Source of the DNA: a virus
Direction: 5' to 3' (one strand)
IMG/VR virus record: IMGVR_UViG_3300037346_000220
Coordinates: 1-64,000 of that record
Length of the DNA: 64,000 bases
Every line of letters begins with the position of its first letter. Within the stretch, counting starts at the first letter, position 1. Shown here piece by piece: positions 8,552-43,852 of this stretch. A program made the translations under genes and the position numbers. Under the pieces are notes generated by a model. That model was not told where the DNA came from. It worked only from the letters and a program-made list of their open reading frames with translations, and did no database searches.

Positions 8552-8841
8552 TGGCAGACAAGAACGCATGGAAAGACAGCTCAGCTTGCGAAGCTTATGA
8601 TGTTAACTTATTCTTTGATAAGTATGAAGAGAATGAACAGCTACGTCCAGCAATAGAGAACGTCTGCGCTGCTTGTCCAGTAAGGCGTGAGTGCTTTGCT
8701 AATGGAATATCAAACAAGGAGTATGGAGTTTGGGGAGGTATCTACCTTGAGAAAGGTAAAATATCTAGAGAGTTCGGCAGGCATCGTAATAAAAAAGCTT
8801 GGGCGCAAGTCTGGAAAAAGCTAACGATGGATGGGACATAG
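8551..8841 (+). CDS. whiB: WhiB-family Fe-S transcription factor
   Basis: W...AC....LFF...C..CPVRREC...GVWGG: four Cys plus the GVWGG turn. Confidence 0.95.
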   Translation: MADKNAWKDSSACEAYDVNLFFDKYEENEQLRPAIENVCAACPVRRECFANGISNKEYGVWGGIYLEKGKISREFGRHRNKKAWAQVWKKLTMDGT

Positions 8842-27329: not shown

Positions 27330-28755
27330 AGTTCGGCGGTAAATAGGAGATCACTCCAAGTCTTCCGACTTGATATCCTCCCGATACCTGGTATAATATA
27401 ACTATGGTATTATGCAAATGGTGCAAAGATAGGCTACCGCTGGTAGCTCCAAGCACCTGTAGCTGTGGATCATTACGCTTAGTAGACATAAACAATAAGA
27501 TAAGGATAATAGCTATCTTGGAAGATATAGAAATAGATTTCGTAGAGACCCACCCACCAGAACATTTTAGAGACAAGGCCCAAGGTGAATAAGACAACTA
27601 TAGAGGAAACCCTATCAGGTTTTAGCGGACAGATACATTGTGAAGATCATAAAGTAACTGTATTCGTCAATGGGAAGACTAAGGATAGTACTATCAGATC
27701 AGTAGAAGCTACCTATGATAAATATCACGGTATCAAGTACCAGGGTATCTGTGATCTTGAGCGGTATCAAGAAATAGAACAAACACTATCCCTAGTATAA
27801 ACATACCTAGTAGAAAGAACATGAAGTGATTCTTAATATTATTATAGTAGGCTTTCTGGTTAACTACGTTATCAGACATATGATCAAATACTATAAGAGT
27901 TTATAGATTTAAGTCTTAGAAGCTCTAGAAGCCTTTCTCCCATAACTACCTATCTGAGATATCAGGAGAACTTTATACCCTCCCATATAGCCATATATAG
28001 CTAATTAGACCTATGTGACATATAGTTGATAGTGTGTTTATATCTTACTGAATAGATAGTTGGATAGTGGATAGATATGTATAGATATAGTGTATGGGTA
28101 ATGGGCCACATTGTTATGAAAACGTAATAACTTTTCCCCTACATTACTTGACATATCTACCATATAGGTGTATAATACATATCTCCATATCTAACCCTAC
28201 TAGGTATCTCCTATCCCTGATAACCCCATATGAGCATAGATATCTATCTATATATCCCTGTATAAAAGTATATAAACATATATAAAAGCTATGAATTTCT
28301 GGAAATAATATCCCCTATCGTAATGATTTATATCAAAACCATATCAGAAATGTATGTATGTTTCTACTAGGGGGATATGGGATCAAAAGGAGAGGAGGAG
28401 GGTGATCTATTTATACCCTGGCTATTCGCCAGAGACTTCGTCTGGATCCAGGATCAATTCTTTCGGGGTAAATACAAATAACTTATCTAACATAGTTATA
28501 GTAGCAAACGTATTCCATATAGCTTTACCTATAGTAGAGTAACCTTCTGATATCTTCTTAGCCTCCATAGGATACATAGCATTGAAGAAGTGATATCGTG
28601 TCATATGTCTATTATACTCCCTATGTGTATATGATGATCATGTTTAAATGCCCCAAAACTTCTGGAAAAAAATATCGATCATCTTAATGTATTATTTACA
28701 AACATATACTTGACATTTGGGATAGAGTGTGCTCGACCCCCAAAGGGGTCCTTTG

Positions 28756-29070
28756 TCAAATTGAGAATAAGTCATCTAGAGAGTCAAAGCCCTCATCTTC
28801 TGGTAGCTCCATTGAAGCCAATAGTAGGTCAAAGGTTTCTTCCAATAGGGTTATGCCTACTTTCTGTGGCTTGACTAAGTCCTGAGTAATTAGATAAGCA
28901 AGTGGCAAGCCTAAATCGTTGTAGCTAATGAAGTCTTGAAACTCATCATCTCCCCTGTAGTTCATCCATAGGTCAGCTAGTATCTCTGCTTTCTTTTCTA
29001 TGGTTGTTCCGTTACCGCTATTCTCTCCCAAGTAATTTCTCCACTTCTTCCACTGCCGCTTCTGCGACAA
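28756..29070 (-). CDS. Hypothetical acidic protein (start uncertain)
   Basis: ILADLW..Y...F.DF..YNDLGLPLAY. Confidence 0.7.
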   Translation of the reverse strand: MSQKRQWKKWRNYLGENSGNGTTIEKKAEILADLWMNYRGDDEFQDFISYNDLGLPLAYLITQDLVKPQKVGITLLEETFDLLLASMELPEDEGFDSLDDLFSI

Positions 29071-29215
29071 GCAATACCCTATTGTAACTTGTTCTTGGTT
29101 GTATGTGTGCTAGATACTTTCCAACCTCATCTAAATCTAATGTGACATCATTCACCAACGCTCCTATGCTTTTAGCTACTTTTGCTTCTACGGCTAATTC
29201 GTGTTTCTTTCCCAT
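29018..29215 (-). CDS. Hypothetical protein
   Basis: AGGAG RBS and TTGACA-17-TACAAT promoter. Confidence 0.7.
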   Translation of the reverse strand: MGKKHELAVEAKVAKSIGALVNDVTLDLDEVGKYLAHIQPRTSYNRVLLVAEAAVEEVEKLLGRE

Positions 29216-29370
29216 TTAGACTCCTATTGTCCATTGTATCAAAAATGTGTGAGGGTGTCAAGTAGAAAAGTAGGAATCTTCTCAACACCCTCGTGTATGG
29301 ATAGCCAACCCCTTAGCCTCCATACTGATATGAGGAACTTTCGCTACAACCCATATCAATCTTTATTTAA

Positions 29371-29754
29371 TTACAGCATGCCTGCTTCTTGTGTTAGAGG
29401 ACTCTCGTACATTGGTAGGCTCTCTATCCAGGATGCCAACAAGGCAGGTGCTCCTTTTGCTAGATCTGCGGATCCCGTCCAGTCGTCGTGATCTTCCCAG
29501 TATGTGGACCAGGTCTTGTTCTCGTTAATCCAGTCATGAGGGACATCCCAATAAGCATCTGTACCTAAGGCATGTTGAACTATACTAATATTCATAGGGT
29601 CAGAGGTCTCAATTTCTATCTCCAGCTTATGAGGAGTCTTTAGTGTATTAGTACTAATAAAGTTGTTGTCTTCATCTACACCCATCTCATAACACAATAG
29701 CTTTAAACGGCCATCTGCTACATAGATGTTTAGATCATACTCATTTGTTTGCAT
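29371..29754 (-). CDS. Hypothetical protein
   Basis: Coupled to upstream ORF. Confidence 0.7.
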   Translation of the reverse strand: MQTNEYDLNIYVADGRLKLLCYEMGVDEDNNFISTNTLKTPHKLEIEIETSDPMNISIVQHALGTDAYWDVPHDWINENKTWSTYWEDHDDWTGSADLAKGAPALLASWIESLPMYESPLTQEAGML

Positions 29755-30032
29755 TAGTCTTCTTCCTCTTCCTGATAGTCAACCATGTAAAAGTCTTCGT
29801 TCTTGTAGGGGAACTGAGTTATGTAGTAACCAATAACATTGGCACTAGCGTACCCGTTAGTAATCACGGTAGCTAGGTCAGCATACACGTAAGACCATAC
29901 GACGTCTCTGTCTTGAGACTGTACATAGTCCAGCTGTTCACCTTCAGTATCAAACATGTATGTATCACTATCAAACCTATTAGCTATAGGAGCAAACTCT
30001 GTTGCCCATTCACTGAATGTCATACTAGTCAT
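29754..30032 (-). CDS. Hypothetical protein, tandem paralog of 30025-30405
   Basis: Shared T.SEW...F.P..N, F.T.G....VQS, VW, VI.NGY...N. Confidence 0.75.
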   Translation of the reverse strand: MTSMTFSEWATEFAPIANRFDSDTYMFDTEGEQLDYVQSQDRDVVWSYVYADLATVITNGYASANVIGYYITQFPYKNEDFYMVDYQEEEED

Positions 30033-30405
30033 TGTATACCGTCACCAATCCGTAGCCCTCACAGGAATCGCAGTCCTCTTTGCCATCCCCAGTCTCCTCA
30101 TCATAGCACACACATTCTGTCTCAGTGCTAGTAATAATCTGATAGTCAGTGTCTTCCTCATAAGGAACCTCACAAACAAAATAGTTTAGCCTGTTGACAT
30201 AGTGGTAACCGTTAGCAATGACGGAACACATGTCAGCGTCCAACCAAGTCCAGACCATACGCTCATCAATCTTTGATTGAACAAACTCCACTTCAGCACC
30301 ATAGGTCTCGAAGTTTATTCCGTCTGGATACTTAGTAAGATGATTAGTCGTAGGCTTGAACTTCTCTTCCCACTCTGAATAGGTTATCTCTACAAAATTA
30401 GTCAT
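30025..30405 (-). CDS. Hypothetical protein with C-terminal CxC...CxxC
   Basis: AAGGAG RBS; paralog of 29754-30032. Confidence 0.75.
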   Translation of the reverse strand: MTNFVEITYSEWEEKFKPTTNHLTKYPDGINFETYGAEVEFVQSKIDERMVWTWLDADMCSVIANGYHYVNRLNYFVCEVPYEEDTDYQIITSTETECVCYDEETGDGKEDCDSCEGYGLVTVYND

Positions 30406-30415
30406 GGGGTCTCCT

Positions 30416-30949
30416 TTAGAAATGGAAGTCTACAGGTACAATGTACCACGTTTTGTCACCATTGTCAATACTCTTTTGCATGGGTTGCATACTTGTGCTG
30501 TCGTTATGTATGTCATAGAAGTATGAGTTGAAGTCCCAGTAGCCAGCAGCCATGTCATAAAGCTTCTTGATAGAATAGAGGTCAGACATTATCTTGTAGT
30601 CAGGGTCACCAGAGCTTGAATGCTTCAAAGAGGCCAATAGAGCCTTGTAGTCAATCTTCTCTGCACTAACTAGATACTCAGACATCTCTGTACTGCGATT
30701 AGTCATAGACTGAGTCAGCCTCTCCACAAACTCTGGGGTATCTTGAATTACAACATCATCCATGTAACTATCGTTGTAAGGGTCCTCACTACTAGAGAAC
30801 CGTCCACCACCAGTAACAAACCAATCAAACCATGTATTACTATCAGAGTAAGGGTCATCCCCTAGCTTGGCCTCTAGGCCCTCTTGTACAGAACGAAAAG
30901 CCTGCTCGGAGCTATCTGCCTGAATGGCTATGTTTTGAAGTACGTGCAA
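30416..30949 (-). CDS. Conserved phage protein (W.DW...GGR.S ... VDFH motif)
   Basis: Motifs plus TTGACA-17-CATACT promoter. Confidence 0.75.
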   Translation of the reverse strand: MHVLQNIAIQADSSEQAFRSVQEGLEAKLGDDPYSDSNTWFDWFVTGGGRFSSSEDPYNDSYMDDVVIQDTPEFVERLTQSMTNRSTEMSEYLVSAEKIDYKALLASLKHSSSGDPDYKIMSDLYSIKKLYDMAAGYWDFNSYFYDIHNDSTSMQPMQKSIDNGDKTWYIVPVDFHF

Positions 30950-32933
30950 GGGGTTTCCTATCTCTTGGGGTTATGTATAAAGTATGACAGGAAAACACCT
31001 ATTTGTCAAGTACTTCTGGGAAAGAAATAACATCATCTTAAAGATATATTTGTGTTTAGCGGTCTATATATAGATGCGGTCGAGCCCCGAAGGGTCCTAC
31101 TAGAGGAAATCAATGAGATCGCCGTCAAAGCCACCTGTCTCCAATTCCATGTTTAGTTCTCGGTAAGAGATCTCACCCTTCTCAGCCATCTCAAATAGCT
31201 CTACCACGTATTCATTTTCCATTGTGTGTCTCCTTCTGTTGGTTATCCAAAGTCTCTAAGCCTTCTGCCATCTCTGTCCCTCCAAGATTTCTTGGTATTG
31301 GTTGAGAGCCATATAGTCCTTACCGCATTTGACAAGGTAGTGTTGGGTAGTGTCAATGCTACCACTCAGGTATTCAAACTCAATGTCCTCCCAAGTTATC
31401 TGGTCTACCTCATCATAGAGAGTATAGAGATGACTAACCATGTAGTCTAGGAACTGGTCAAGATTAGTAAACTCTTTAGTCATAAACCTCAAGGTAGTCT
31501 CCTTACTCTGTCTCTTGCGAATTTTCATCTTGGGTTATACGTCTTTCAACATCTCTGCTAGTTTATCTAGTTGCTCTTTGGTTAGGCTATTCAACACATC
31601 TTCGTTGATTATGCTACCGTCTGTCCAAGCACTCATTTTGCATCCTCTAGCTTTCTTGCTTCGTGGTCATCTGATTTCCAAGTCCAACCTCTAGTTAGCT
31701 TGTCATACGCTTCTACTAGACAGTGGTATTTGGAATGGTCTTCCTCTACCTTCTGAGCAATTAGCTCTGCAATCATAGCAGCCTGTTCCTTACTAAAAAA
31801 GTATCCTGTTTCTGACATTAGCTTCTCCCTAAGTGTAGTAGTTCTTCGTCTGTTAGTTCCTCTAGTCTATCATTACCCTCAGACATTATGCTCTTGCTCT
31901 CCTTCACACTTGTTACAGAATGGTGTGCAATCAAAAGCACCTTCGTGGTTGGGACACTCTATTGTGTTTGTCATAGTTCCTATTATACTGTAGGGGTCAG
32001 ACATTTATTATTTCAACGTTGATAGCGCCTAGCAAGCTAAAAGAATTACCAAGGCCCATAGCCATTATGTCTTCCGCTGTATTCTCCCTGACGTAGTCTA
32101 TCTGGTCCTCTGGAGTAAGCTCGCTAAGAACCTCATCCTCATCCACAAAGTATTCAAAAACAATACTAGCTCTTATAACCTTACTCATAACCCTAGCTCC
32201 TCAATAGCCTGAACAGCCATATGAGTATCCATCATACCCTCAAGGCCCAATTCATCTCTAAGATACTCACAGGTATCGTACACCCCTTGCCAGTATTCAA
32301 GATTCATCTTCATCCTCCAGGGTATCGTTATTAGCTATAACTGGCATACTAAAGAAATTAGTCCAGGTAGTGCCCATAGTTACTTCACTCATCTTCATCC
32401 TCTTCCAATTCTTTTACAGTAATGTCCTCTACCTGACCAGTATACTTATAGTCCTCATAGTCCCAACCCTGTTTCTCTGCTGCCGCATAGTCCTCAGCCT
32501 CTACTTCATAGGTGTAAGATACTTCTACTGTAACTTCATAGTTTGGCATTAGTCTTCCCATTCTGATAGGTCTTCGTGTCCCTTTAGTATAGCAACGGCA
32601 TACGACATTTTATCGCTGTCGGCTAGGGTGTCAAGAACACCCCACTGGTCTTCGGTTAGCTGGTCATAAGAAAAGGTAAGCAGCATGCCACTACCGTAGT
32701 TGCCATCTTCTGAAACGTATGATTCTGGTCTGAGTGCATAGGTCATTGGGGGGTCTCTCTTTCTTTGATAAATCAATACTACCATAGGGGTCAGACATTA
32801 TGCAAGCTACTTTTGGGAGTTTTTTCTAGCTATCTTAATAGGTTATTTATGTTAGTAGATATATTTTAGAATGTCCTGGCGATCGACCACACTCTACCCC
32901 CAGTGTCAAACTGAGGGCAGGCGTGTCGTGAAA

Positions 32934-33929
32934 TTAGGCGTTTGCCAAAACCAACTGAAGCAAACGGTTTTTCTCTGCATTTATCATTGGGTCAAAGCCA
33001 GAAGCGGAAGCCAAGATAGACTCATTGGAACCACCACGAGCTGTGCGATACCAATCCAAACGTTCTGTCATAGCATTGAAAGCACCCCAAGCGGTTCCTG
33101 AAATAGTGTTGTTATAGTCACCCACATAAATCGCTTGGATAAGGTCAACCTTATTTCCATACTTCTTGAATGAACCCTTCTTGTCCTCGCCAACTGGGGC
33201 AGGGTATGCTAGAGCAACAATCTTGTCAAACTTATCCTTAGAGATAGTCTGCTCAATCATCTGCTTAGCCATGATGTCAAATTCATCCATGTATTTGTTA
33301 GCTAGGCCAAGAGCTTCTCTGGCTTGCTGAACCTTGCCAGAAGCGGTTGCTGTATGCCTAATCTTGAAGGACTGCTTAGCCTTACCCTTTAGGGCAACGT
33401 TCAAGGTGTTAGAGCATACAACACGAACTGGAGTAATAGAAGCTTGGATGGCAACTGAACCATCGTGGCTAGTGTTGATTAGTAAATACGTGTTGACTTT
33501 ATCGCCTACACCATTAGGGTCTAACACTGTCTGACGCTCCAAGGCTAGAGAACCGAATACTTGACGGCCACCTTTGATAGAGCCAGCTGTCTCCCAACGT
33601 CCTCCACCATCCAACATTAGGTCTCCAAAGTCAAACAAATCTTCGTTCTGCAATGGAACATAACGCTCACCAACAACGCCTAGAACATCGTTCTGCTCTT
33701 TGTCAAAAGGGTTGGTGCGTGTAACAAAAGAAAAGCTCTTGTCACTTGCAAAGCCTTCAGGAATTGCAACATCTTCTAGACGGACGTTCCAATCTGAAAG
33801 GTGTGCTAGGTCTAGCATTTCCTTAGTTGTAACTTCCTCATCAAATACGGTTCCCAATCCATGCCATGCAGGCTGACGTAGGGATGCGAATGCGGTCTGG
33901 CCATTTACTGTTTCAATTTCGTGCGACAT
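32934..33929 (-). CDS. DUF932 / phage-plasmid-like protein (TIGR03299 type)
   Basis: AWHGLG, LGVVGERY..LQN, ETAGS..GG, NTSHDGS, TPVRVVC.NTL, IRHT, GTAWGAFNA.TE. Confidence 0.88.
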   Translation of the reverse strand: MSHEIETVNGQTAFASLRQPAWHGLGTVFDEEVTTKEMLDLAHLSDWNVRLEDVAIPEGFASDKSFSFVTRTNPFDKEQNDVLGVVGERYVPLQNEDLFDFGDLMLDGGGRWETAGSIKGGRQVFGSLALERQTVLDPNGVGDKVNTYLLINTSHDGSVAIQASITPVRVVCSNTLNVALKGKAKQSFKIRHTATASGKVQQAREALGLANKYMDEFDIMAKQMIEQTISKDKFDKIVALAYPAPVGEDKKGSFKKYGNKVDLIQAIYVGDYNNTISGTAWGAFNAMTERLDWYRTARGGSNESILASASGFDPMINAEKNRLLQLVLANA

Positions 33930-34092
33930 AAGGGGTCTTCTCTCTTTGTTTGATAGTACAACTATACACTAGGGGGCTGACATTATCAAGGTCTTAATGC
34001 ACCTTCTTAAAGGGTTTTATGTAACAGTTAGATAACGAAACGCTCGAGCACAGCGAACCCCCAGGTGTCAACCCAGGGGATCAGCGTGTTGG

Positions 34093-34596
34093 CTATGCTT
34101 TTTCTAAAGTGAACGCCCAAACATAGTCATCGTTGGTTAGTCCTGCCTGTATCTCATCAAAGGTGAGAACGAGGGTAATTCCTTCATAGGTAGAAACAAA
34201 GGTTCTGTTATCTAAATTGAGGGTATAGATACCTTCACACATTAGCTCATCAAACTCAAACTCTAGGTCTAGAACAATAGGCAACATTCCATCACTAGTA
34301 GCAATCACTTCTAGAATGTCTGCGCAAGTGTTTCTTGACATAGTAGGCCAGAGCTTTTCAAACTCTTTATTGTCAAGATTTGCTTTCTCAATCCTAGCAA
34401 TTTCTAACTCCCAGACTGTATCACTCATTGTGTATAGGTTGTCAATGTTATGGGTTAGTAGTTCAATCATCTCAGGGTTACGGATAAAGTTTAGAACGGT
34501 AACGCCCGATCCAGCAGGGTAGCCATCCCATTGTCCATACTGAGAAACTACTGTGTTGCCATCTTTGATTACCTTAGTTATGTTGCGTGTTCCCAT
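34093..34596 (-). CDS. Hypothetical protein (MGTR...QYGQWDGYP family)
   Basis: Recurrent phage early-protein N-terminus. Confidence 0.75.
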   Translation of the reverse strand: MGTRNITKVIKDGNTVVSQYGQWDGYPAGSGVTVLNFIRNPEMIELLTHNIDNLYTMSDTVWELEIARIEKANLDNKEFEKLWPTMSRNTCADILEVIATSDGMLPIVLDLEFEFDELMCEGIYTLNLDNRTFVSTYEGITLVLTFDEIQAGLTNDDYVWAFTLEKA

Positions 34597-34709
34597 TTGG
34601 GATACCTACTTCCTTGGTTATACATACAGACTAGCATTGGGGTCAGACACTTTAGGGTGAGCAGTTTACCTAGACTTGCTCAGGTCATTCTCCCTAAACC
34701 TTTGCAGAT

Positions 34710-35156
34710 TTATAGGAACTCTATCAACGCCCCATAGGTTGAGCCAGATACTTCCTCTTGGGTGGTCATACGCAATACCTTGAGGTTTTTCTCTAGCATC
34801 TCTTTTGGAGAGTAGTGGTCACGACCATACCAAGTTCTGCGGTTAGGCTCTTGTGGCTGTTGTGGCATCTCAGGCAATCCAGCTACCGCACTTGGCTTGA
34901 ACTCAATCTGAATACGATTATCTCCATAGGTAACAACACGAATTGGAGCGTCATACTCATAGCTAATGGTATCTTTATTCAACATAACTTTGCTAATTGC
35001 AACAGCTAGGTCTATGCGATACTGCTCTTTGTCCACCTCATACTTTGCCAAGTCATCTGCATAGCTTTCAACTGATGCGTCAATGCTTGCAATCTTTGCT
35101 TCAATTTCTGCGATTAGGAGAGCTGTTGGAATCTTTACGGAAATACTTCTAGCCAT
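34710..35156 (-). CDS. Hypothetical coiled-coil protein
   Basis: ORF with own promoter. Confidence 0.75.
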   Translation of the reverse strand: MARSISVKIPTALLIAEIEAKIASIDASVESYADDLAKYEVDKEQYRIDLAVAISKVMLNKDTISYEYDAPIRVVTYGDNRIQIEFKPSAVAGLPEMPQQPQEPNRRTWYGRDHYSPKEMLEKNLKVLRMTTQEEVSGSTYGALIEFL

Positions 35157-35223
35157 TATAGGGGGTCTGCTTTCATTAGGGGTTATTTGTTTACTTAGTA
35201 ATTATACAATAGGGGTAGGACAT

Positions 35224-35268
35224 TTTAGGGGGAATAGTGAAAGGATTAGAAACTCTACTCCCCCTAAA
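35224..35268 (-). ncRNA. Hairpin with 17-nt anti-SD loop (copy 1)
   Basis: 14-bp stem (one G-U on - strand), loop AGUUUCUAAUCCUUUCA. Confidence 0.65.
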
Positions 35269-35275
35269 GACTATA

Positions 35276-35428
35276 CTACTTTACAGTAGTCCAGCGAGGC
35301 TGTCCAGATACATCTAGACGAACACGACTTGTGCCGTTCTTGTTCTGAATAACTTCCTGAATTACTCCAGTAACGCCTGACTTAGCTGTGGTGAACTGTG
35401 AGCCAACAGTTAGAGTTGCATTTGACAT
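35276..35428 (-). CDS. Small beta-rich protein (MSNATLTVGSQFTTAKSGVTG...)
   Basis: Start reassigned downstream of the TTGACT-17-TACAAT promoter. Confidence 0.7.
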   Translation of the reverse strand: MSNATLTVGSQFTTAKSGVTGVIQEVIQNKNGTSRVRLDVSGQPRWTTVK

Positions 35429-35880
35429 AATTGCTTCCGTTCTCGCCCCAGAGGGACTATCTTGATTAGTTACCAACGACTTGTTGATAGCTCTATTGTA
35501 GCTGAAATTAGAGTGAAAGTCAAGCCTATTTGGTAACAAAATGATAACAACTTCTAGGCTTTGTCTTCTCTTTTCCAACTACTATAACTATACCTGAGTG
35601 GGATAGGAATTGCAACTCTTAAACCTACAAAGATTTACGAGATTTTTTGTAGGTATCTTAATTGACTTTATAGGATCTGTGCGCTCGGCCACAGAAGAAA
35701 AAAACAGCCAGTTTCTCGTCATGGCCAGGACGTCAGTACCCCTACTGAAGCTTAGTGTTTTCTATTCTCATGAAGTCTAGTTGACGTTGCATATCAACGA
35801 TGCTTTCCTCTAGGCTAACTATCTTATTGCGCATGCTTAGCAATGCTGGGTGTTGACTCTCTGTCCTAATTGGAGTTACC

Positions 35881-36405
35881 TTATTCATGTGAACCTCTCT
35901 TTACTATCCAGATAATTGCTTGGGTTGTTCTAGGTGTTAGGCCATGGATTTTGGCAACTGCCTTTACTGCTTGGCTAAGTGCATGATAGTCACTTTGGCT
36001 AGGTGAGGACTTGGCGTGGTCAACGGCTTTCATCATCCAGACGTCTATCACAACTTGCTCTTGGTCACCTGCAATAGCCTTGGCGAATGCATTAGTCTTT
36101 AGGCCTTTTAGGGCACTAAACCCGTCAGTGAGTGATTTCTCTGCCATACGGATGTTATTCTTTAGGCAGCGGACTTCTTGCCCTAGTGAGAATGCTATGG
36201 CCCTAGCGATGTTCATGGTCCAACGCTCACGAGGTGAGAATGAACTTACAACACTGGCCCCTATCTCTAAGGTGGTCCCTAAGTTTATTGCCACTTTTTC
36301 AGCAATGCGCTCAGCGTCCATATACCAAATTGCTGCCTGCTCAACTTGGCCTAGGGTTGCTTGGGATACAAGCTTGGAGTATTTCTCAATGTAAGTTTCT
36401 AGCAT
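35881..36405 (-). CDS. Conserved phage protein, possible helical DNA-glycosylase-like fold
   Basis: WY..A, SP...W..N, KT.AF, V.IDVW, QA.IW; TTGACA-17-TAAGCT promoter. Confidence 0.6.
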   Translation of the reverse strand: MLETYIEKYSKLVSQATLGQVEQAAIWYMDAERIAEKVAINLGTTLEIGASVVSSFSPRERWTMNIARAIAFSLGQEVRCLKNNIRMAEKSLTDGFSALKGLKTNAFAKAIAGDQEQVVIDVWMMKAVDHAKSSPSQSDYHALSQAVKAVAKIHGLTPRTTQAIIWIVKRGSHE

Positions 36406-36465
36406 TTGGGGTAAGTCTCTCTGTAGGGGTTATAGATTATAGCTTAGCATGTTCTCAGCTGTTTG

Positions 36466-36735
36466 TCAACTATCTTCCGAACACCATGCGCCTAAGTAGT
36501 ATGAACTAATAACATTCCTGGCAGACACCTCGGTATTGCCCCTAAAGCTTACACCTTGCGGCAACGGTATTAGTTTATCTAATTCATCTTCCCAATAAGC
36601 GTCAATAGCTGTTATTGCCGTAGGTATCATCTGACGTGGAATTGGAGGATAGCAATTGCTACTAAAGTGGATAGCTATCTGATTCTCTAGGCTCATGCCT
36701 TGCTCTTGCAATTCTATCGCTGTCATCATTCCCAT
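36466..36735 (-). CDS. Hypothetical protein
   Basis: H.SSN.YPP motif; coupled ORF. Confidence 0.7.
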   Translation of the reverse strand: MGMMTAIELQEQGMSLENQIAIHFSSNCYPPIPRQMIPTAITAIDAYWEDELDKLIPLPQGVSFRGNTEVSARNVISSYYLGAWCSEDS

Positions 36736-36929
36736 TATTTTACCTCCACGTATTCCATAGCAACCCTCAAAAGGTTGTCGTAGTCTCCCGACATACTGGC
36801 AGAAAGATACTCGCTAATTTCTGAAGCGGTTGCTCCAGACTTTTTTAGTGCAGACTTTACCGCTCCCATTACCGCAAAAGCGTTTCCATCACGACCTGTT
36901 AGTTGAACTACTACATCGTATTTTGCCAT
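36735..36929 (-). CDS. Conserved small phage protein (L.G.DGNAF.VMG.V...SGDYDNLL)
   Basis: Recurrent phage motif; GAAAGGA RBS. Confidence 0.8.
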   Translation of the reverse strand: MAKYDVVVQLTGRDGNAFAVMGAVKSALKKSGATASEISEYLSASMSGDYDNLLRVAMEYVEVK

Positions 36930-37589
36930 TTTGTATCCTTTCGGTTATAAAATAATCATACATCAGGGGTCAGACATTTTACCTAGAACTCTAGGTCATA
37001 TTTCAAGAGCACCCTATCAAAAGCATCATCAAGTTTCTGAAGATCCGCCATCAAAGCATCACGCTGTTCTCGATCCATTTCTTTCACTTCACTCATTGGA
37101 AGTGACATTTCCCAAAATTCTTTTCTCATTTTATCTCCTCTAGGGTAAAGTCATACTCATCGCCACCTGCGAGAGCGTGTTCAAACTCATTTTGATTACT
37201 AAAATAAAAGAAGATACCGTCATCATCCTCACCCTCAGTCCACTCGGCATCAATAGCGACGGTAGCTAGGAAACCCTCTCCTGGAGTATCTTTCCATTCA
37301 ACCAATACCCTCTTGTATTCAGTCATCACTCCTGCTTTCTTTGATAGCTTTATAGTTGTTAGACTGCCTTGAACCCTTATACTTATCAACTTGCGCTACT
37401 AGGTGAGGGTTCTTCAGTATGTTGTAAAATAACGCCTGGCTTTCAACCTTGCGCCTTGCCTCGTTGTATCTTCCTAATTTGCTCATAGTGAAACTATAAC
37501 ACAGGGGTCAGACATTTTGGGAAGGAATTTTTCCTATCTTAATTAACTCATCTTAATTAGTTGTCTAATCGTTATAAACGCTCGGGCAG

Positions 37590-37637
37590 AAAAAAATAGC
37601 ACCCAAGGTGAAAGGATTAGAAACTCCCTGGGCACTA
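37590..37637 (-). terminator. Terminator hairpin with the same 17-nt anti-SD loop (copy 2)
   Basis: 12-bp stem with three G-U pairs on - strand, identical loop, U7 tail. Confidence 0.7.
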
Positions 37638-38568
37638 CTTCTTCTGGGTGGCTTGGTTAGATCGTTTCAGGACCTCACCCAATTATTCCCCTAATTAGGA
37701 GGAATAAAACTTGAACGCTTAGTTGAGAAATACTTACGCTTAGCATAGCCAAGAGTGACAAGGACTGCCACAGACACTAGGACTAAGTCTACTAGCAAGT
37801 TGAAACCATTGTAAAAAATCATTAGTTACCTTCTTTCGTTGTGAATAGTTTATCAGGGGTATCAGACAACATTAGCTCTATCTTGAAGATTAGCTCCTCA
37901 AGGGTTTCTGTGCTTAGGCGCTCAGGCATAACCAAGCTCTCTAAGCTCTACGGGAAAGTCTTCACCTAGATAGTCTACAGCGTCTAACACTAGCATTACT
38001 CCGTCATACTCGTTGCAGCCAGAACACACATAGAACTCTACTGTGTCTAGGCAATACACGCACAATTTCATTTCATTCATTACTTATCCTTTCGTTGTTA
38101 TAAGCTTAGCTTAGCACGGGGGTCTGACATTATAGACAGCCCACGTTCACAGTAAATTCTTCAACGCTAAAGGCACACTTTGGGCACAGGGCGTTCACTG
38201 TGTCGTCTATTAGCAATACAGCTTCGGTTGCCTTGGCAAACTTACAAAATCCACAGTTCATTTATCATCCTTTTCGTTATAGGTTTATCTTAGCACAGGG
38301 GTCTGACATTTTAGGTTGCTCTGCCAGAAAGAAGATAGTCAATTTCTTCTTCCCTAGCCAAATCGTTGTTATGTTCCCAAAGCTTGTTGTGAACGGATAG
38401 TGTGTGGCTAGTCTTCCACGCCTTAGCGTCAAGATAGTAGGTGGTGCTTAGTTCCTGAGTAAATCCACAGCCGTTGCAGGTGGTCTTGCGATACATTTTT
38501 GTCATTGATCATCCTTTGCGTTATAGGTATAACCTATCACACATCTGACCCAATAGCAAGTCTATTAG

Positions 38569-38606
38569 GTAACAGTTAGGTAACGTTTATGTAACGTTTA
38601 GGTAAC
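38569..38606 (-). repeat. Four GTTAC direct repeats with 11-bp period upstream of a -35
   Basis: GTAAC on + at 38569, 38580, 38591, 38602. Confidence 0.85.
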
Positions 38607-40211
38607 ATCTATTAGTTTTGGGAATAAACTTTTCCCATCTTAATTTGGGAGATCTTAAATACATTCTTAAGCTTATTTGGGGAATAAATCTATAGTGGGC
38701 GCTCGAAAAAAAATCGGCAAATGTCAAGCGACACGCCGTGGAGAAATAAACTATTTAGTTTATCTCGCCATACGCCTCGTAGCAATTTACGCAAGCGGTT
38801 TCACCTTCAACCTCTACAGTTGGAACGGTGTTTGAACATATTTCGCAAAATTTGAAATCAATCATCTTTTACATCCTTTCTATTTATTTCTTTATCTTTA
38901 TTTATACTAGTAGTCTATACCCTACACCCCCAAAAGTCAAGACGACACGCCGTGTTTGGCGAAAGTTCTTTATAACAAAACAGTAACGGTTATAGGCTAC
39001 CTAGACGGCTGGCAAAGTCTTCGTTCCAGATCCAGTTCCAGGTATAGCCTAGTGATGCAACCCTAATCAATAGGTAGGCGATGTAAGCTGTGCCTGCTAG
39101 GCAAATGGCGTATACGCTAATTCTTTTTGACTTTGTCATTTCTTTATCCTTTGTTTGTATATCTATAGCATAGTGCATAGGTGAGACATTATCAATACGA
39201 CACGCCGAAGAATAGAAAAAAAATACCCCTATTGTTCTGGGGTATTCATTTCGGTAACAACACTAGCAATTCCAGCAATAGCGTTGTCATAGTCCTCCCA
39301 AGTATCAAAAGTGAGCGTTATCATTATGTTACCAACCTCTCGTTGAACCCAGAGCGTTAGCCATTACCATTAGACCGTTGATGTATTTGATTTCACTATC
39401 ACTAGGGGTATCACCTACGATAGACACTAGTGTTTCTATCTCTACCTCTATCTCTGATAGTGAGAGGGTATCCAATTCTTTGAATCTATTCATTATTATC
39501 CTTTACTGTTTATACTATGATACTAACACTAGGGTCAGACACTTTAGAATGTCTTGCTAAGCTGTAAGTCTATCCACCTAAGCCAAGTTGCACCTACTGG
39601 CTTATTGCCAGACTTGATGCCCTGTAGCACTGTTGAGTAAAACATTTTTTCTTCTTTATTCATTCTTGATTTCTTCATAGTTCTACCTTACCATAGGGGT
39701 CTGACATTTTAGATGGACTCATTACCAGTTACCATTAGGATGGTGTAGCCCATCCCCTCAAGCTTAGCGATAGCGTTATCAACATTGGCTGGCATTGAAC
39801 CAAACCAAACCATTGAGTCATTGTCCTTGCTTACGAAAATCTTCTTCATTTCTCTATCCTTTATCTTTCTTTGTATAGTTACACTCTACAGGATAGACAT
39901 TCAAAAGTCAACACGACACGCCGATGATTGGAAAACTTTTCTCATAAGGGTGGCACCAGTGTGCTCACTAATTATGCTTGCTTATTCACCCAGATCGTGT
40001 ATCGTACATAACTATAAAATATTCAGATATTGCTAAAAATAGATTTTTTCAGATTTAGGCGGTATACCAATATCCATCATATCTCTGATCTCCAGGGTAT
40101 CTATAACATACACAATATCCCATAGTAGATATAATCTTAATGTCTAGTAAGGATATCCTAAGTATAAACAATATATGGTGCTATCCTTATAGTAAAGAAG
40201 GAGGGGAATAC

Positions 40212-40262
40212 ATGTCAAAGCCTGAATGCAAGTGCACTAAATGTAAGTGTGGAAAGAACTAA
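40212..40262 (+). CDS. 16-aa Cys-rich micro-peptide MSKPECKCTKCKCGKN
   Basis: Strong RBS AAGGAGG upstream; CxCxxCxC. Confidence 0.45.
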   Translation: MSKPECKCTKCKCGKN

Positions 40263-40418
40263 GTAATCCACTCATATACAACTAAACATAACAAAATAAT
40301 TAAGGCTGCTGTAGGAGGAATGATCCATAACTCTTTGGTAGTCTTTTTTATTTTATCTACGTAATAACTGTCTAATTCGTTATCAGGATAGCTATGGTAT
40401 TTTCGACGGAACAAGGAA

Positions 40419-40610
40419 TCACTCTTCTTTGATCAAACCAAGCTCAACGAGCTTATCATAGATCAAACCATTACCATGTCTAAGCTCTCCCTGCATAGCG
40501 GAGATAACCTCATCAACCTGATCAGCTGGAATACCATTTGACCACGCTATTTCTTTATTCATCTTATTGATAGCATCAGACATCTCGTCTATAACTGCTT
40601 CTCTATTCAT
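40419..40610 (-). CDS. Hypothetical protein
   Basis: Follows 40614 ORF. Confidence 0.7.
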   Translation of the reverse strand: MNREAVIDEMSDAINKMNKEIAWSNGIPADQVDEVISAMQGELRHGNGLIYDKLVELGLIKEE

Positions 40611-40613
40611 CTC

Positions 40614-40820
40614 TTACCACTTTCCCACTGGACATTTAGCTGCTAATAGTGTTGTCTTTAATCTCATAAAGCATCCACACTTTTTACATTTCTGAGCTTT
40701 ACTATTAAAGTGTTCACAGAGTTTACAGATAGCCATTCTCTCATCGTATAAGTCCTTATCGCTTCTTGGTTGCTTAGGATTAAATAGATCGGAAAATGAT
40801 ACATCATCATCGTTACCCAT
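40614..40820 (-). CDS. Six-Cys small protein (R..IC..C...C..CGCFM..K......CP..KW), leaderless
   Basis: Paralogs at 48520 and 60373. Confidence 0.75.
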   Translation of the reverse strand: MGNDDDVSFSDLFNPKQPRSDKDLYDERMAICKLCEHFNSKAQKCKKCGCFMRLKTTLLAAKCPVGKW

Positions 40821-40962
40821 GGTTATAGTATACACCATCAGATACCCCACCGCTTTCGTCTTTACTATTTTTTTAATATTTATTAGACATATGTTGGTGG
40901 GAATACTGATTGAGGATCTCTATATCGTCGAACTTAAACGCCGACTCAAATCCGCCGAGTAC

Positions 40963-41853
40963 CTAAGCGAAGAACTCATCGCCGAACTTAGCTATCGCCT
41001 CTTGGTGGAAAGCATCAGCGTATGACATATGATCTAAAATGCCAGGGTGCGCATCGGCGCCTATTCCATCCGCAGCGAATAACCAGAACTCTTCCTGCCC
41101 AGGCTCTGGGTCCTCAAACTTGTCGCCAAAATAGGCCTCTCCGTATTTTTTCCTGTATGAAAAGTAGCTGTTTAAGCGTTTGGTTTTATTTAGCTCATGT
41201 TCAAATCCTGGATCCCAAGTAGTATACATTAGTGGCACACCGACGGCTTCGAGGTACATCTCAAGCTGTTTGGCTTCGTTCATAAAATCACTCATTAAGT
41301 TCTTGTTCGTAATAACAGAGTTTACGATGTCTAATTCTTCTTGGTTCTCTAGTGGCTGTTCTGTTGAGGGCACAAATACCTCTAAACTGTATGGAGCAGT
41401 CGTCAATCTACCGTTATCAATGTCTATAGAATAATACCTGCTTACATTTGGTAACAAAAGCATAACAATTTTAGGTTTACCGTAACGATTAATGTATTTG
41501 TACACATCTTGGAAGATTCTAGAACAAGAATTTCCTGGTGCGGAAACATCAGCAAGATATTTTGCAGACAGCTTATCCTTTAACAGAGTAGACCACCTAA
41601 CATTTTCTTCCAGTCCCAATCCAAAAGTAACAGAACACCCACCAACGTAAATTGTATCCTTAGAAACTAAATTGTCAAAGTCCTCAGATCGGTATCCTTG
41701 CTTGTTAACAAAATATTCTATTGTTGCTCTAGAATGCTCAACGATATGCGAATCTCTTATCTGTCCGCCAACAGAATGAATGGGGAAGGGTATATCGAGA
41801 TAAATATCAAGCGAGTGACCCTTGTGTTTACCGTGTTTTTCCCTATGTAACAT
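40963..41853 (-). CDS. SGNH-hydrolase-like protein
   Basis: GGCSVTFGLG, PGNS, DAHPG; paralog of 2218-3132. Confidence 0.55.
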   Translation of the reverse strand: MLHREKHGKHKGHSLDIYLDIPFPIHSVGGQIRDSHIVEHSRATIEYFVNKQGYRSEDFDNLVSKDTIYVGGCSVTFGLGLEENVRWSTLLKDKLSAKYLADVSAPGNSCSRIFQDVYKYINRYGKPKIVMLLLPNVSRYYSIDIDNGRLTTAPYSLEVFVPSTEQPLENQEELDIVNSVITNKNLMSDFMNEAKQLEMYLEAVGVPLMYTTWDPGFEHELNKTKRLNSYFSYRKKYGEAYFGDKFEDPEPGQEEFWLFAADGIGADAHPGILDHMSYADAFHQEAIAKFGDEFFA

Positions 41854-41894
41854 AGTCTATTATACCAAAAAAACCCCTTATACTTGTTACTATC

Positions 41895-42176
41895 ATGACA
41901 AACCTCGAGAGCCTTAACTATGTAGTAGCAATATCAGTAGGATTAGGCACTACAATCTCGATGCTAGGTCTTGCGATAAGATGGATGGTTAAACACTACC
42001 TAGAGGAAATTAAGCACGAGCTTAAGCCAAACGGCGGAGGATCAATAAAGGACCAGGTTAACCGTTTAGAACAAAGAATGGATGAAGCAGATGATAAGCG
42101 ACAAGCAATGCATAAAAAAATAGATAACTTATATACATTAATGATCGAATACATTGGAAACAAAAAAGAACACTAG
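41895..42176 (+). CDS. Membrane protein with ELKPNGGGSIKD motif (actinophage lysis-associated type)
   Basis: One TM helix plus coiled coil. Confidence 0.7.
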   Translation: MTNLESLNYVVAISVGLGTTISMLGLAIRWMVKHYLEEIKHELKPNGGGSIKDQVNRLEQRMDEADDKRQAMHKKIDNLYTLMIEYIGNKKEH

Positions 42177-42375
42177 ATAATTATATATAACTACTATATA
42201 ATATAGAACCTAATAAGTAATAAAACCTAACTAGCTATATTAGAACCTAATTAATAATAAATATATGGTAGCACAGATTTTGATCTTGTCAACACTTATT
42301 TTGATAACAATATTATAACTATTAGATAACAGACTTATAACAAGCCTTCTATTACTTGATGTGATATACTTTAAT

Positions 42376-42434
42376 AGCTGGTATCTAGGAGGTCTCTCAT
42401 ACCCACCCTTCTAGGTATCAGCTTTTATTTTTTT
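42376..42434 (+). ncRNA. Putative hairpin sRNA
   Basis: TGA-TATACT -10 at 42362-42370, 17-bp stem with three G-U, 14-nt loop, U-tract. Confidence 0.6.
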
Positions 42435-42485
42435 CAATACCGTTACCTCTTGATTTTTATTTAAGCATGTTATAATATAACTACT

Positions 42486-42872
42486 ATGACTTCACTTTGC
42501 TCTCCTGAAATGCTTGGCGCTAACCCTGCTATTCTTAAATGGGACATTGTTAGAGGAGATACCTCTCCCCTGAGGATTGAGTTTTATCAAAATGATGAAG
42601 TAACTTTTTACGACATGACTGGCTGGACCTACCAAGCGTCTGCTTATGACTACAAAGGTGACGCCATTGATGAGCTAGACGTCGTTGCTGGAGAAGGATT
42701 TATAGAGATTAGTGCCTCGGCAGCTGTTACAGCCCTCTGGGGAACTGGTTATAATAAGATTGTTGCAGAGCTACCTTTTGACCTACAGATAACCATTGAC
42801 GAAACTACAGTTTGGACTCCTGTCATAGGAACAATCTCTGTAATCGGAGATGTGACGGGAAGCGCTCTCTGA
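42486..42872 (+). CDS. Virion protein (RGDT-type beta-sandwich), paralog of 44872 and 49418
   Basis: W.IVRGDT..LRI, FDLQI, VWT...G......DVT. Confidence 0.7.
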   Translation: MTSLCSPEMLGANPAILKWDIVRGDTSPLRIEFYQNDEVTFYDMTGWTYQASAYDYKGDAIDELDVVAGEGFIEISASAAVTALWGTGYNKIVAELPFDLQITIDETTVWTPVIGTISVIGDVTGSAL

Positions 42873-43852
42873 TGGTTGCAAAAATAAAGATTATTCCACT
42901 TCCAGGCTCTTCTGGCCCAGATTCCCCTCTCGTAATGTCAAAATTCAAGATTGTCCCTATGCCAGGACAACAAGGCCAACCAGGACCCACAGGATCTAGA
43001 GGATACAAAGGTGAGGTTGGATCCACGGGTCCTCAAGGACCTCAAGGCCCAACTGGAGAAGACAGCAATGTGGAGGGCCCACAAGGATTAACTGGCAACG
43101 AAGGTCTTCAGGGAGTACAGGGAAACACAGGTCTAACGGGTGCCGACAGCACTGTCGTAGGACCCGAAGGACTAGCTGGTGAACGGGGGATTCAAGGCAT
43201 CCAAGGTGATATCGGAAACACTGGTCCAATCAGCCTCATACCAGGCCCACAAGGACCACAGGGAGAAGCAGGATTAGATAGCACCGTCGAGGGTCCTAGA
43301 GGCGCTGACAGTACCGTTGAAGGCCCACAAGGCGTACAGGGTGAGCAGGGAAACACTGGCCCAATAAGCACCGTCCCAGGTCCACAGGGTAATGAAGGAA
43401 TTCAGGGAGACCAAGGTCTTAAAGGAGATCAAGGTCTTCAAGGGCTTATCGGAGCTACTGGTGCAACGGGTATTACTTGGCAAGGCCTCTGGGATGCGAC
43501 CAGAGATTACATAAGTAACGACTCAGTCTTTAAAAATGGAGCTTCTTGGTTTGCATCTGGAGACCCAGCAGTTGGAGAGGTACCAGACTCAAATGCTGAG
43601 CACTGGTATCCTTTAGCTCTACAAGGCGTGCAGGGATTGCAGGGTTCCGTAGGAGCAACATCTACGGTAGCAGGGCCATCGGGTGCTGACAAGCTAAACG
43701 TCGTAAACGTTGCTGGTGTAGCTGCCTTAAGCCCCGTCTACGGCGGTCTATCACACGTTGCTGCCTACTCTGACCTAGAGTATGACTGTGTGACTCCAGG
43801 AGTAATTGCCATTACGGCTGCTCCAGGTATACAGTATATAGATATGACCTAA
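42872..43852 (+). CDS. Collagen-like virion fibre protein
   Basis: Long interrupted Gly-X-Y tract (GPQGPQG, STVEGP), WQGLWD domain. Confidence 0.9.
   Translation: MVAKIKIIPLPGSSGPDSPLVMSKFKIVPMPGQQGQPGPTGSRGYKGEVGSTGPQGPQGPTGEDSNVEGPQGLTGNEGLQGVQGNTGLTGADSTVVGPEGLAGERGIQGIQGDIGNTGPISLIPGPQGPQGEAGLDSTVEGPRGADSTVEGPQGVQGEQGNTGPISTVPGPQGNEGIQGDQGLKGDQGLQGLIGATGATGITWQGLWDATRDYISNDSVFKNGASWFASGDPAVGEVPDSNAEHWYPLALQGVQGLQGSVGATSTVAGPSGADKLNVVNVAGVAALSPVYGGLSHVAAYSDLEYDCVTPGVIAITAAPGIQYIDMT

Follow-up and report, generated by a model that had tools for sequence, protein, structure and literature searches.

Among described systems, the c4 antisense RNA of phages P1 and P7 (RF01695; Citron and Schuster, 1990; reviewed in PMC12197685) is one of the closest to the locus studied here. 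It is a multi-stem RNA of ~77 nt from temperate phages of enterobacteria, located ahead of a single target operon. The Cuckoo or CcsR (alpha-r14) RNAs of Alphaproteobacteria comprise two to four adjacent hairpins with CCUCCUCCC in each loop (PMC4615179), and the CcsR RNAs arise by processing of the 3′ UTR of a DUF1127 gene (PMC8034643). The 3′ UTR of the Staphylococcus aureus icaR mRNA contains an anti-SD motif that base-pairs to the SD of this message, controlling translation and decay (PMC3868564), and pairing between 5′ and 3′ UTRs is also found in the hbs mRNA of B. subtilis (PMC5737220). Two more general kinds of RNA element enter the comparison. One comprises the sRNAs of Gram-positive bacteria with C-rich loops, such as S. 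aureus RsaE (with a UCCC motif) and the actinobacterial 6C RNA (RF01066). The other is the Rho-independent terminator, with a GC-rich stem, a loop of 3-8 nt and a U-tract directly after the stem.

We have analyzed two hairpins encoded within a window of 64,000 nucleotides (the whole stretch of DNA under analysis) from a virus record of 111,267 bp. The sequencing runs listed for this phage are all of DNA (24/24), from salt-lake metagenomes. Hairpin 1 (35224..35268, - strand) has a 14-bp stem with one G-U pair and a 17-nt loop at 35254..35238; read along the - strand from 35268 to 35224 its sequence is TTTAGGGGGAGTAG-[AGTTTCTAATCCTTTCA]-CTATTCCCCCTAAA, with the loop in brackets. Hairpin 2 (37597..37637, - strand) has a stem of 11-12 bp with three G-U pairs and its loop at 37625..37609, and reads from 37637 to 37597 as (A)GTGCCCAGGG, the 17-mer of hairpin 1, then CCTTGGGTGC(T). 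The stems have no sequence in common, while the 17-nt loops are identical.

The original prediction held that two different stems display one loop as RNA of the - strand, and this is borne out by folding and by the G-U asymmetry of hairpin 2. As - strand RNA, hairpin 1 folds with -23.5 kcal/mol (z = -3.9) and hairpin 2 with -26.0 kcal/mol (z = -4.0), and in each case 0 of 200 shuffled sequences folded better. The + strand RNA of hairpin 2 reaches only -12.8 kcal/mol (z = +0.4), which is the level of the shuffles, because its three G-U pairs are converted into A-C mismatches. The A-rich 5′ flank of hairpin 2 could lengthen the helix to ~19 bp. The original prediction had also proposed a search of the full genome for the 17-mer. 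This returned exactly two copies in the window and still two in the whole virus record, both of them hairpin loops; a covariance-model search of the phage genome likewise found hairpins 1 and 2 only. A decoy of the CsrA type, presenting AAGGA in a loop of the + strand, is ruled out: hairpin 2 is unfolded on that strand, and the stems contain no A-C mismatches.

The two hairpins belong to a family present in related uncultured phages, of which 26 distinct members were aligned. In the stems 96.8% of cells are paired, compensatory changes are seen in 11 of 11 pairs, and none of 500 shuffles reached the observed score. G-U combinations occur 32 times in these stems and A-C combinations not once. 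The loop core UUCUUAUCCUUUC is near-invariant within the consensus ..GUUUCUUAUCCUUUC.., and conservation is at least 90% across UUCUUAU-CCUUUC on wholly different stems. Selection on an exposed loop with a free stem, as had been predicted from the two hairpins, is thus what the relatives exhibit: the loop is kept and the stem drifts. In loci that could be oriented by their DUF7178 gene, all matches (21/21) are gene-sense. Both loops of the present genome carry a U-to-A change, CUAAUCC as against CUUAUCC in the family, and this weakens pairing with the GGAUA/GGAUG sites of the phage itself. Among the strain variants listed, drawn from contigs of four runs, no substitution falls inside hairpin 1, and in one variant the U-run of the hairpin 2 loop has lost 1 nt, with indels in the stem as well.

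An exact scan of viral contigs for the 17-mer gave 11 stretches, with the hairpins present in one near-identical contig alone; the other nine lie outside any hairpin and are taken as chance matches. Scans with 15-mer and 14-mer loop cores gave ~230 matches, 19 distinct ones being in hairpins. The covariance models R1 and R2 miss a subfamily with a 14-nt loop (CUUACUUCCUUUCU), which was traced by script. Searching positions 28000-43000 on both strands against Rfam by cmscan, with E values up to 1, gave no family match, including none to c4 (RF01695), 6C RNA (RF01066) or other actinobacterial sRNAs. A near-DNA search of cultured phages found no match. The closest cultured-phage proteins have at most 56% identity for DUF932 and at most 32% for DUF7178, and there is therefore no cultured model that carries the hairpin. 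A full-text search of the literature found no description of the family. On these comparative grounds, this is a conserved RNA hairpin family that is absent from Rfam.

Hairpin 1 begins 7 nt past the stop codon at 35276-35278. Only 1 nt separates its end from an abutting, predicted early promoter of the TGTC-N12-TAnnnT class (TGTCCTACCCCTATTGTATAAT, 35201..35222, - strand). Hairpin 2 is followed directly on its 3′ side by the U-rich tail UAUUUUUUUC (37587..37596, - strand), giving it the appearance of an intrinsic terminator despite the very large loop; hairpin 1 lacks a U-tract. A second predicted early promoter (TGTCTGACCCCTGTGTTATAGT, 37493..37514, - strand) is located ~80 nt past hairpin 2, and the gene that it would serve starts at 37486 and is apparently leaderless. 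Across the family the hairpins lie 2-190 nt past a stop codon, with the next early promoter at a median of 83 nt. The genes upstream of hairpins 1 and 2 have no Pfam match, and the operon of hairpin 1 includes DUF7178. A Pfam search of ten neighboring small early proteins did not find an RNA-binding or nuclease domain.

Taking predicted promoters and ORFs as a guide, both of the operons that end at a hairpin open with the two leaders CGAAAGGAUA. The operon terminated by hairpin 1 has its promoter at 36976 and its start at 36929, with GAAAGGAU at 36935..36942 (- strand) in the leader; that terminated by hairpin 2 has its promoter at 38129 and its start at 38080, with GAAAGGAU at 38086..38093 (- strand). 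In each case the leader contains an 8-nt complement of the loop, and these two leaders match the loop best. The original prediction derived the RNAs from 3′ UTRs, and the positions of these putative RNAs fit this, past a stop codon and ahead of the next promoter. The arrangement is best explained if two early transcription units of this phage, an uncultured actinophage from a salt lake, each carry, as hairpin 1 or hairpin 2, a stem-loop of sense-strand RNA at the 3′ end.

The early genes around the hairpins have a ribosome-binding site (RBS) variant of their own. In the block of small early genes at 38087..40190 (- strand) this private RBS has the form (G/A)AAAGGAU(A/G), and the ATG starts are 38080, 38261, 38505, 38865, 39139, 39493 and 39849. 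AAAGGAU or GAAAGGAU is found 5-8 nt upstream of all of these and of the ATG start at 36929, and the TTG start at 40171 has a weaker, shorter AAGGAU at a distance of 12 nt. The predicted occurrence of an AAAGGAU-type RBS before many early genes thus holds for eight ATG starts, plus the weaker site. The whole genome has ~12 AAGGAT-led starts, of which nine fall within 36929 to 40171; the remaining genome uses mainly AAGGAG, and AAAGGAU is almost absent there. Starts in this region that look leaderless are 39678 and 37486. In relatives, genes past the last hairpin use other types of RBS. We take UCCUUUC to be the core of the 16S 3′ tail in Actinobacteria and Firmicutes generally, from which the tail of the host itself may differ. 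The pairing of the private AAAGGAU extends at least one base further on the loop than on the 16S tail.

In small early genes upstream of and between the hairpins, the SD GAAAGGA and the bases that follow it have their antisense in the loop. Moreover, loop and RBS variant differ together between lineages, AUCC loops going with AAGGAU and UUCC loops with AAGGAA, which upholds the predicted antisense relationship to the RBSs of the earliest small genes. Where phages have AUCC loops, AAGGA is followed by T in 34 cases, A in 12, G in 8 and C in 2; the corresponding numbers with UUCC loops are T 14, A 100, G 48 and C 25. For the RBS of the orthologous DUF7178 genes the base is T in 3/3 AUCC phages, and A in 7/9 and T in none of the UUCC phages. 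The UUCC half of this co-variation is weak, because A is the commonest base after AAGGA also at loci where no hairpin was found, and the switch of loop and RBS may be one event, because the AUCC lineages form an unresolved polytomy.

Contiguous pairing between loop and RBS extends over 9-14 nt in four relatives (L047, L063, L072 and L081), exceeding that with loops of the other type and with the 16S tail, and overall it exceeds that of loops with shuffled 5′ halves (p < 0.001). For the present window (L045) it is just 7-8 nt, and pairing beyond the anti-SD core is no better than for shuffles (p = 0.57). Early and other translation-initiation regions (TIRs) of this genome differ in their preference for the loop or a mimic of the 16S tail (Mann-Whitney p = 0.016), with values of -9.8 kcal/mol (loop) and -8.5 kcal/mol (mimic) for early TIRs, as against -7.8 and -9.6 kcal/mol respectively for those of other genes. 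The loop of this genome can also pair over 9 nt (GGAUUAGA) with the 790 loop, which is universal in 16S rRNA; we take this to be a coincidence, because the family consensus UUAUCC does not preserve it.

Our preferred reading, which we consider about equally liable to be right or wrong, is that the 3′-end hairpins pair in cis or in trans with the early RBSs, probably braking translation of the early genes. The loop would base-pair with the private RBSs and compete against the 30S subunit. By a cis route the hairpin would act from the 3′ end of the very mRNA that carries the RBS, in the manner of icaR; by a trans route it would act as a stable 3′ fragment, like the c4 or Cuckoo RNAs. The outcome would be that translation, and perhaps stability, of the earliest gene set is limited or shut off, leaving phage genes that are AAGGAG-led or leaderless unaffected. 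Leaderless mRNAs might plausibly be spared, since there are leaderless-looking starts at 39678 and 37486. The sequences themselves show the structure, its strand, the constancy of the loop, the complementarity and the joint variation of loop and RBS by lineage; we infer that the RNA accumulates, that it pairs in vivo and that it represses. Action on host mRNAs, which the original prediction had also entertained, is not indicated, because the position at which loop and 16S tail disagree is precisely that at which the private RBS and the canonical SD do. It is conceivable, if doubtful, that the early operons are self-timing: once RNA polymerase has come to the end of the operon, the emerging loop would fold back and close the private SD with which that short-leader mRNA begins, so that the length of the operon sets a fixed translation window in the absence of protein, and the private SD and anti-SD would be a lineage-specific code evolving in step.

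The loop might instead be read by a protein. The hairpins would then be 3′-end terminators or stabilizers whose loop is a protein binding site or decoy, the complementarity to the SD being a by-product of rRNA mimicry. Candidate partners are factors that bind or cut the anti-SD in the 16S 3′ tail (UCCUUUCU), such as a ribosomal or initiation protein, or a toxin of the MazF type, which cleaves UCCUU. That the loop core equals the 16S tail is established knowledge, and the 13-15-nt loop is near-invariant on unrelated stems, conserved more tightly than pairing with individual, variable RBSs, over 9-12 nt, seems to need; the U-to-A change common to both loops here does not improve that pairing. 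Yet a protein partner leaves unexplained both the matching of the private AAGGAU or AAGGAA to the type of loop and the deviation of the loop from the 16S tail at exactly that position, and the ten neighboring small proteins lack an RNA-binding or nuclease domain in Pfam. We regard this as rather unlikely. An improbable variant on rRNA mimicry is that the hairpins are sponges for host mRNAs, masking canonical host SDs and so aiding host shut-off. The loop has a 7-nt identity to the 16S tail core, and SDs of the GAAAGGA type should be frequent in hosts whose 16S ends in ...CCUCCUUUCU; but the loop has A or U where 16S has C, canonical GAAAGGAG sites pair by 7 nt only, the AAGGAG-led genes of this genome show weaker binding to the loop than to the 16S mimic, and stoichiometric action on all host mRNAs is implausible.

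We also give little credence to ordinary terminators or insulators between early promoters, with loops that are alike through common descent or local duplication. The location past stop codons and ahead of promoters is as expected for these, as are the U7 tail and A-rich 5′ flank of hairpin 2, whereas loops of 13-17 nt are unfavorable for termination, a U-rich tail is present in only 3-4 of 22 distinct family hairpins, and replacing the stem fully while keeping the loop is the opposite of what a terminator requires. Most improbable of all is a role of the 17-mer as duplex DNA bound by a regulator, in which case the hairpin would be incidental. Read as DNA, RBS motif and loop constitute one site in opposite orientations, and the hairpins adjoin promoters. 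However, the excess of G-U over A-C in the stems and the failure of hairpin 2 to fold on the other strand point to selection on one RNA strand; the matches in the DUF7178-oriented loci are gene-sense throughout, and the motif is non-palindromic and always in the loop.

Explanations of early-to-middle switching have so far invoked promoters, nucleases like T4 RegB and proteins like RegA that act as repressors; the pairing of hairpin and RBS, if true, would place a post-transcriptional layer beside these. It would also mean that large lytic actinobacterial phages time their earliest genes by an RNA-only switch, in which a private SD marks one class of genes and a 16S-mimicking loop, being a slightly better match, competes with the ribosome for that class. 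It could then provide a simple, portable and orthogonal translation switch for actinobacteria. The covariance model of the hairpin family allows its annotation in metagenomic phages.

How then does this locus compare with the known systems? With a Rho-independent terminator, hairpin 2 shares a stem-loop past a gene and a U-tail, but the loop here is conserved and of 13-17 nt, and most family members lack the tail. The C-rich-loop sRNAs have similarly unpaired pyrimidine loops, which in those sRNAs are seeds against SDs; they are cellular, multi-hairpin RNAs with other motifs. The Cuckoo/CcsR RNAs resemble the hairpins in having highly variable stems around a constant, anti-SD-like pyrimidine loop motif. 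They form one cellular sRNA, whereas here a phage encodes single hairpins, separated by 2.4 kb and with UUAUCCUUUC as loop motif; the loop reads AGUUUCUAAUCCUUUCA in place of CCUCCUCCC, and there are no adjacent hairpins and no DUF1127 neighbor. As in the icaR type, the element would lie in a 3′ UTR with a complementary SD in the 5′ leader of the same mRNA, judging by predicted promoters and ORFs. The icaR and hbs cases each concern one cellular gene, and the anti-SD motif of icaR, unlike the one here, does not form the loop of a family of terminal hairpins. Finally, c4 and these hairpins are alike in being phage-encoded, in coming from the transcription unit of their own target (predicted here) and in having loops complementary to the region of the RBS. 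In both, a difference in the loop between related phages goes with a difference in the target, which for c4 concerns heteroimmunity. The likeness is one of working principle only: in place of the multi-stem c4 RNA we find single hairpins at operon 3′ ends, matched to many small early genes, in phages with an actinobacterial host signature.

We have analyzed two hairpins encoded on the minus strand, at 35268..35224 (hairpin 1; 14-bp stem with one G-U pair) and 37637..37597 (hairpin 2; 11-12-bp stem with three G-U pairs). Their loops (35238-35254 and 37609-37625) are identical at 17/17 positions, both being AGUUUCUAAUCCUUUCA, and the stems have no sequence in common. Folding as minus-strand RNA gave −23.5 and −26.0 kcal/mol respectively (z about −4), and hairpin 2 taken as plus-strand RNA folded no better than shuffled sequence. 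The original prediction of an identical 17-nt loop on different stems of a minus-strand RNA is thus borne out by the sequence and by folding against shuffles. The 17-mer occurs exactly twice in the window and exactly twice in the 111,267-bp record, and the family covariance model found the same two hairpins in the whole record, and no others. Both loops are one base off the family consensus, CUAAUCC versus CUUAUCC (A for U). In a related phage (L063) the orthologous pair shows differences at its two end positions. Loop identity and a common U-to-A change on unrelated stems could reflect concerted change or short-patch conversion. Co-occurring strains in three salt-lake runs have an altered hairpin 2 (window positions 37623, 37637 and 37644), in which the loop U-run is shorter by one U and the stem flank carries matching indels.

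Relatives were gathered via the DUF7178 protein (35881-36405, minus strand) and an alignment of its homologues, yielding 75 loci in uncultured phages, of which several measure 100-125 kb. Their early-gene strand carries hairpins with very unlike stems and closely akin loops (CGUUUCUUAUCCUUUCU, AGUUAUUAUCCUUUCG, AUUUUUAUCCUUUC, CUUACUUCCUUUCU and UCUUUUCCUUUCUU); more stems came from a loop-core scan of viral contigs. In 26 distinct model-aligned members, 96.8% of stem cells are paired (about 50% in slid controls), compensatory changes occur at 11/11 stem pairs, and none of 500 shuffles reached the observed covariation. These stems contain 32 G-U pairs and no A-C mismatch, which indicates selection on the sense-strand RNA rather than on DNA or its opposite strand. 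Over UUCUUAU-CCUUUC the loop is at least 90% conserved. Rfam contained no matching family, and full-text literature searches turned up no account of the hairpin. The hairpin is a genuine RNA element of phages that is conserved and not yet catalogued.

Other structures were noted alongside the family. A third large-loop hairpin at 29251-29292 (minus strand; GAGGGUGUUGAG-[AAGAUUCCUACUUUUCUA]-CUUGACACCCUC) has a loop resembling the family core split by AC (UCCU-AC-UUUC), is kept in relatives (L046:8464-8505 and L048:17931-17966) and may be a diverged member; its 3′ arm includes TTGACA, which is the −35 element of a sigma-70-like promoter (with TG; TTGACA-17-TACAAT). Loops fall into two lineage-specific types, AUCC and UUCC. 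In the UUCC subfamily a conserved block of about 30 nt, CGTCCTGGMCAYGACGTAAAACTGKCCAC, with repeated CTGGCCA/CTGTCCA words, always lies 3′ of the hairpin (L049:14149-14180, L056:12531-12560 and about 10 other loci), and could be an operator or another type of promoter. More distant relatives (L093:1871-1915, L094:292-336 and L104:2731-2772) have 12-bp hairpins whose loop, ACUCCACCCACCCAUCCC, is C-rich and 18-21 nt long, with a tRNA-like sequence immediately after the hairpin in L093 and L094; these may be another displayed-loop RNA.

The position of 22 distinct hairpins was surveyed. They lie 2-190 nt past a stop codon, and the next TGTC-type promoter follows at a median distance of 83 nt. Hairpin 1 starts 7 nt past a stop codon, its far end being 1 nt ahead of the promoter TGTCCTACCCCTATTGTATAAT, and hairpin 2 is about 80 nt ahead of the promoter at 37514. 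This location, after a stop and ahead of a promoter, makes the hairpins 3′-end elements of early transcription units. In a complete relative (G002) the hairpin lies within a terminal repeat of about 8.5 kb. About 12 early minus-strand promoters match aaTGTCwGACCCC-N4-TAnnnT (32003, 32797, 33982, 34649, 35222, 36976, 37514, 38129, 38308, 39541 and 39706, plus a weaker match at 39188), a motif also present ahead of early genes in relatives. Minus-strand genes starting at 39678, 37486, 41853 and 28604 have an ATG 6 nt past the −10 hexamer and no Shine-Dalgarno (SD) sequence, and their mRNAs are probably leaderless. Leaderless mRNAs are common in Actinobacteria. In short GC-rich minus-strand hairpins at 32894-32920, 34058-34079 and 32624-32644, TTGACA lies in the loop or where the loop meets the 3′ arm, and a terminator-like stem seems to overlap a −35 element. 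The early block is bordered on the opposite strand by a strong terminator-like hairpin (42376-42423, plus strand) with a 17-bp stem followed by UUUAUUUUUUU; its 14-nt loop, UCUCUCAUACCCAC, is unrelated to that of the family.

Several features point to an actinobacterial host: a WhiB-family gene (8569-8745, plus strand; 52 bits, above the Pfam cut-off), an actinophage hallmark; DUF932 and DUF7178 proteins whose best cultured relatives, at no more than 56% identity, are in Streptomyces, Mycobacterium, Gordonia and Microbacterium phages; the early promoters; and the leaderless-looking genes. The genome is about 43% GC. The phage DNA recurs in salt-lake metagenomes of 2017-2020, with no RNA runs among the listed sequencing runs containing it; loose contig ends place relatives similar to the genome G001 in the same lake.

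The small early genes have a private ribosome-binding site (RBS). The sequence (G/A)AAAGGAU(A/G) precedes the ATG starts at 36929, 38080, 38261, 38505, 38865, 39139, 39493 and 39849, and a weaker AAGGAU lies upstream of a TTG start at 40171; in the rest of the genome the RBS is mainly AAGGAG. Nine of about 12 AAGGAT-led starts in the genome fall within one 3.3-kb block. With UGAAAGGAUUAGAAACU as its complement, the loop has 7-8 nt of pairing in the window. We computed duplex energies in this genome for the loop and for GAUCACCUCCUUUCU, which we take to represent the host 16S rRNA tail. At early translation-initiation regions these were −9.8 kcal/mol for the loop and −8.5 kcal/mol for the mimic, compared with −7.8 and −9.6 kcal/mol at other genes (p = 0.016 for the difference between the two gene classes). 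The relatives are more informative. L047, L063, L072 and L081 have AGAAAGGAUAA.. as the early RBS and ..UUAUCCUUUCU in their loops, with contiguous complementarity of 9-14 nt (as between AAAGGAUAAUAACU and loop AGUUAUUAUCCUUUCG), clearly above that with loops of the other type or with the 16S tail. Genes 3′ of the last hairpin in relatives have other RBS types. Owing to the U-to-A change, both window loops pair less well with the GGAUA/GGAUG sites of their own phage.

Loop and RBS also co-vary. Pooled, the base after AAGGA is T34 A12 G8 C2 in AUCC-loop phages and T14 A100 G48 C25 in UUCC-loop phages, although the UUCC/AAGGAA half is weak since A is the commonest base there anyway. In the RBS of the DUF7178 gene, compared between orthologues, this base is T in 3/3 AUCC phages, and A in 7/9, C in 2/9 and T in 0/9 UUCC phages. 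The AUCC phages form three groups within an unresolved polytomy of the DUF7178 tree, so the switch occurred one to three times. Shuffling the loop 5′ halves lowered complementarity overall (p < 0.001), an effect originating from L047, L081 and L063; for the window's phage there was none (p = 0.57).

These data are consistent with a loop that pairs with RBSs, a reading to which we give even odds, and we would provisionally class the family as anti-SD base-pairing RNA regulators. On the simplest account, a stable stem at the 3′ end of early RNAs would present the loop in single-stranded form, and the loop would pair with the private SD of the earliest genes and the bases next to it. The loop would compete with the 16S tail for the SD, the private position being where its imitation of the tail departs. 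The earliest genes would be repressed, and AAGGAG-led and leaderless genes would escape. The hairpin at an operon's 3′ end might act in cis on its own leader: the operons ending at hairpins 1 and 2 begin with leaders CGAAAGGAUA, and these account for two of the three 8-nt loop matches on the minus strand of the early region. Alternatively, it might act in trans after processing. One regulator facing about 10 targets would explain the slow evolution of the loop. The idea that the loops are antisense to the phage's own early RBSs thus gains support from relatives, but is unproven, and the pairing in the window is short.

The very tight conservation of the entire loop would also suit a protein partner, and a protein-binding site or a decoy of the 16S tail is an unlikely but credible alternative. 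We think it improbable that the hairpin is a sponge for host SDs, and the predicted shut-off of host translation by an anti-SD loop is unsupported. A plain terminator seems similarly improbable: hairpin 2 looks terminator-like because of the A-rich run on its 5′ side and UAUUUUUUU directly 3′, but hairpin 1 lacks a U-tail and a U-rich tail follows just 3-4 of the 22 hairpins, most of which are not canonical terminators. That the 17-mer is a DNA site is very hard to reconcile with the excess of G-U pairs over A-C mismatches.

RBS pairing by the loop would have parallels in known systems. The arrangement seen here, with a hairpin at the operon end and a matching leader at its start, is similar to that of icaR (PMC3868564). 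Action in trans after processing would resemble c4 (PMC12197685) or the CcsR/cuckoo RNAs (PMC4615179, PMC8034643).
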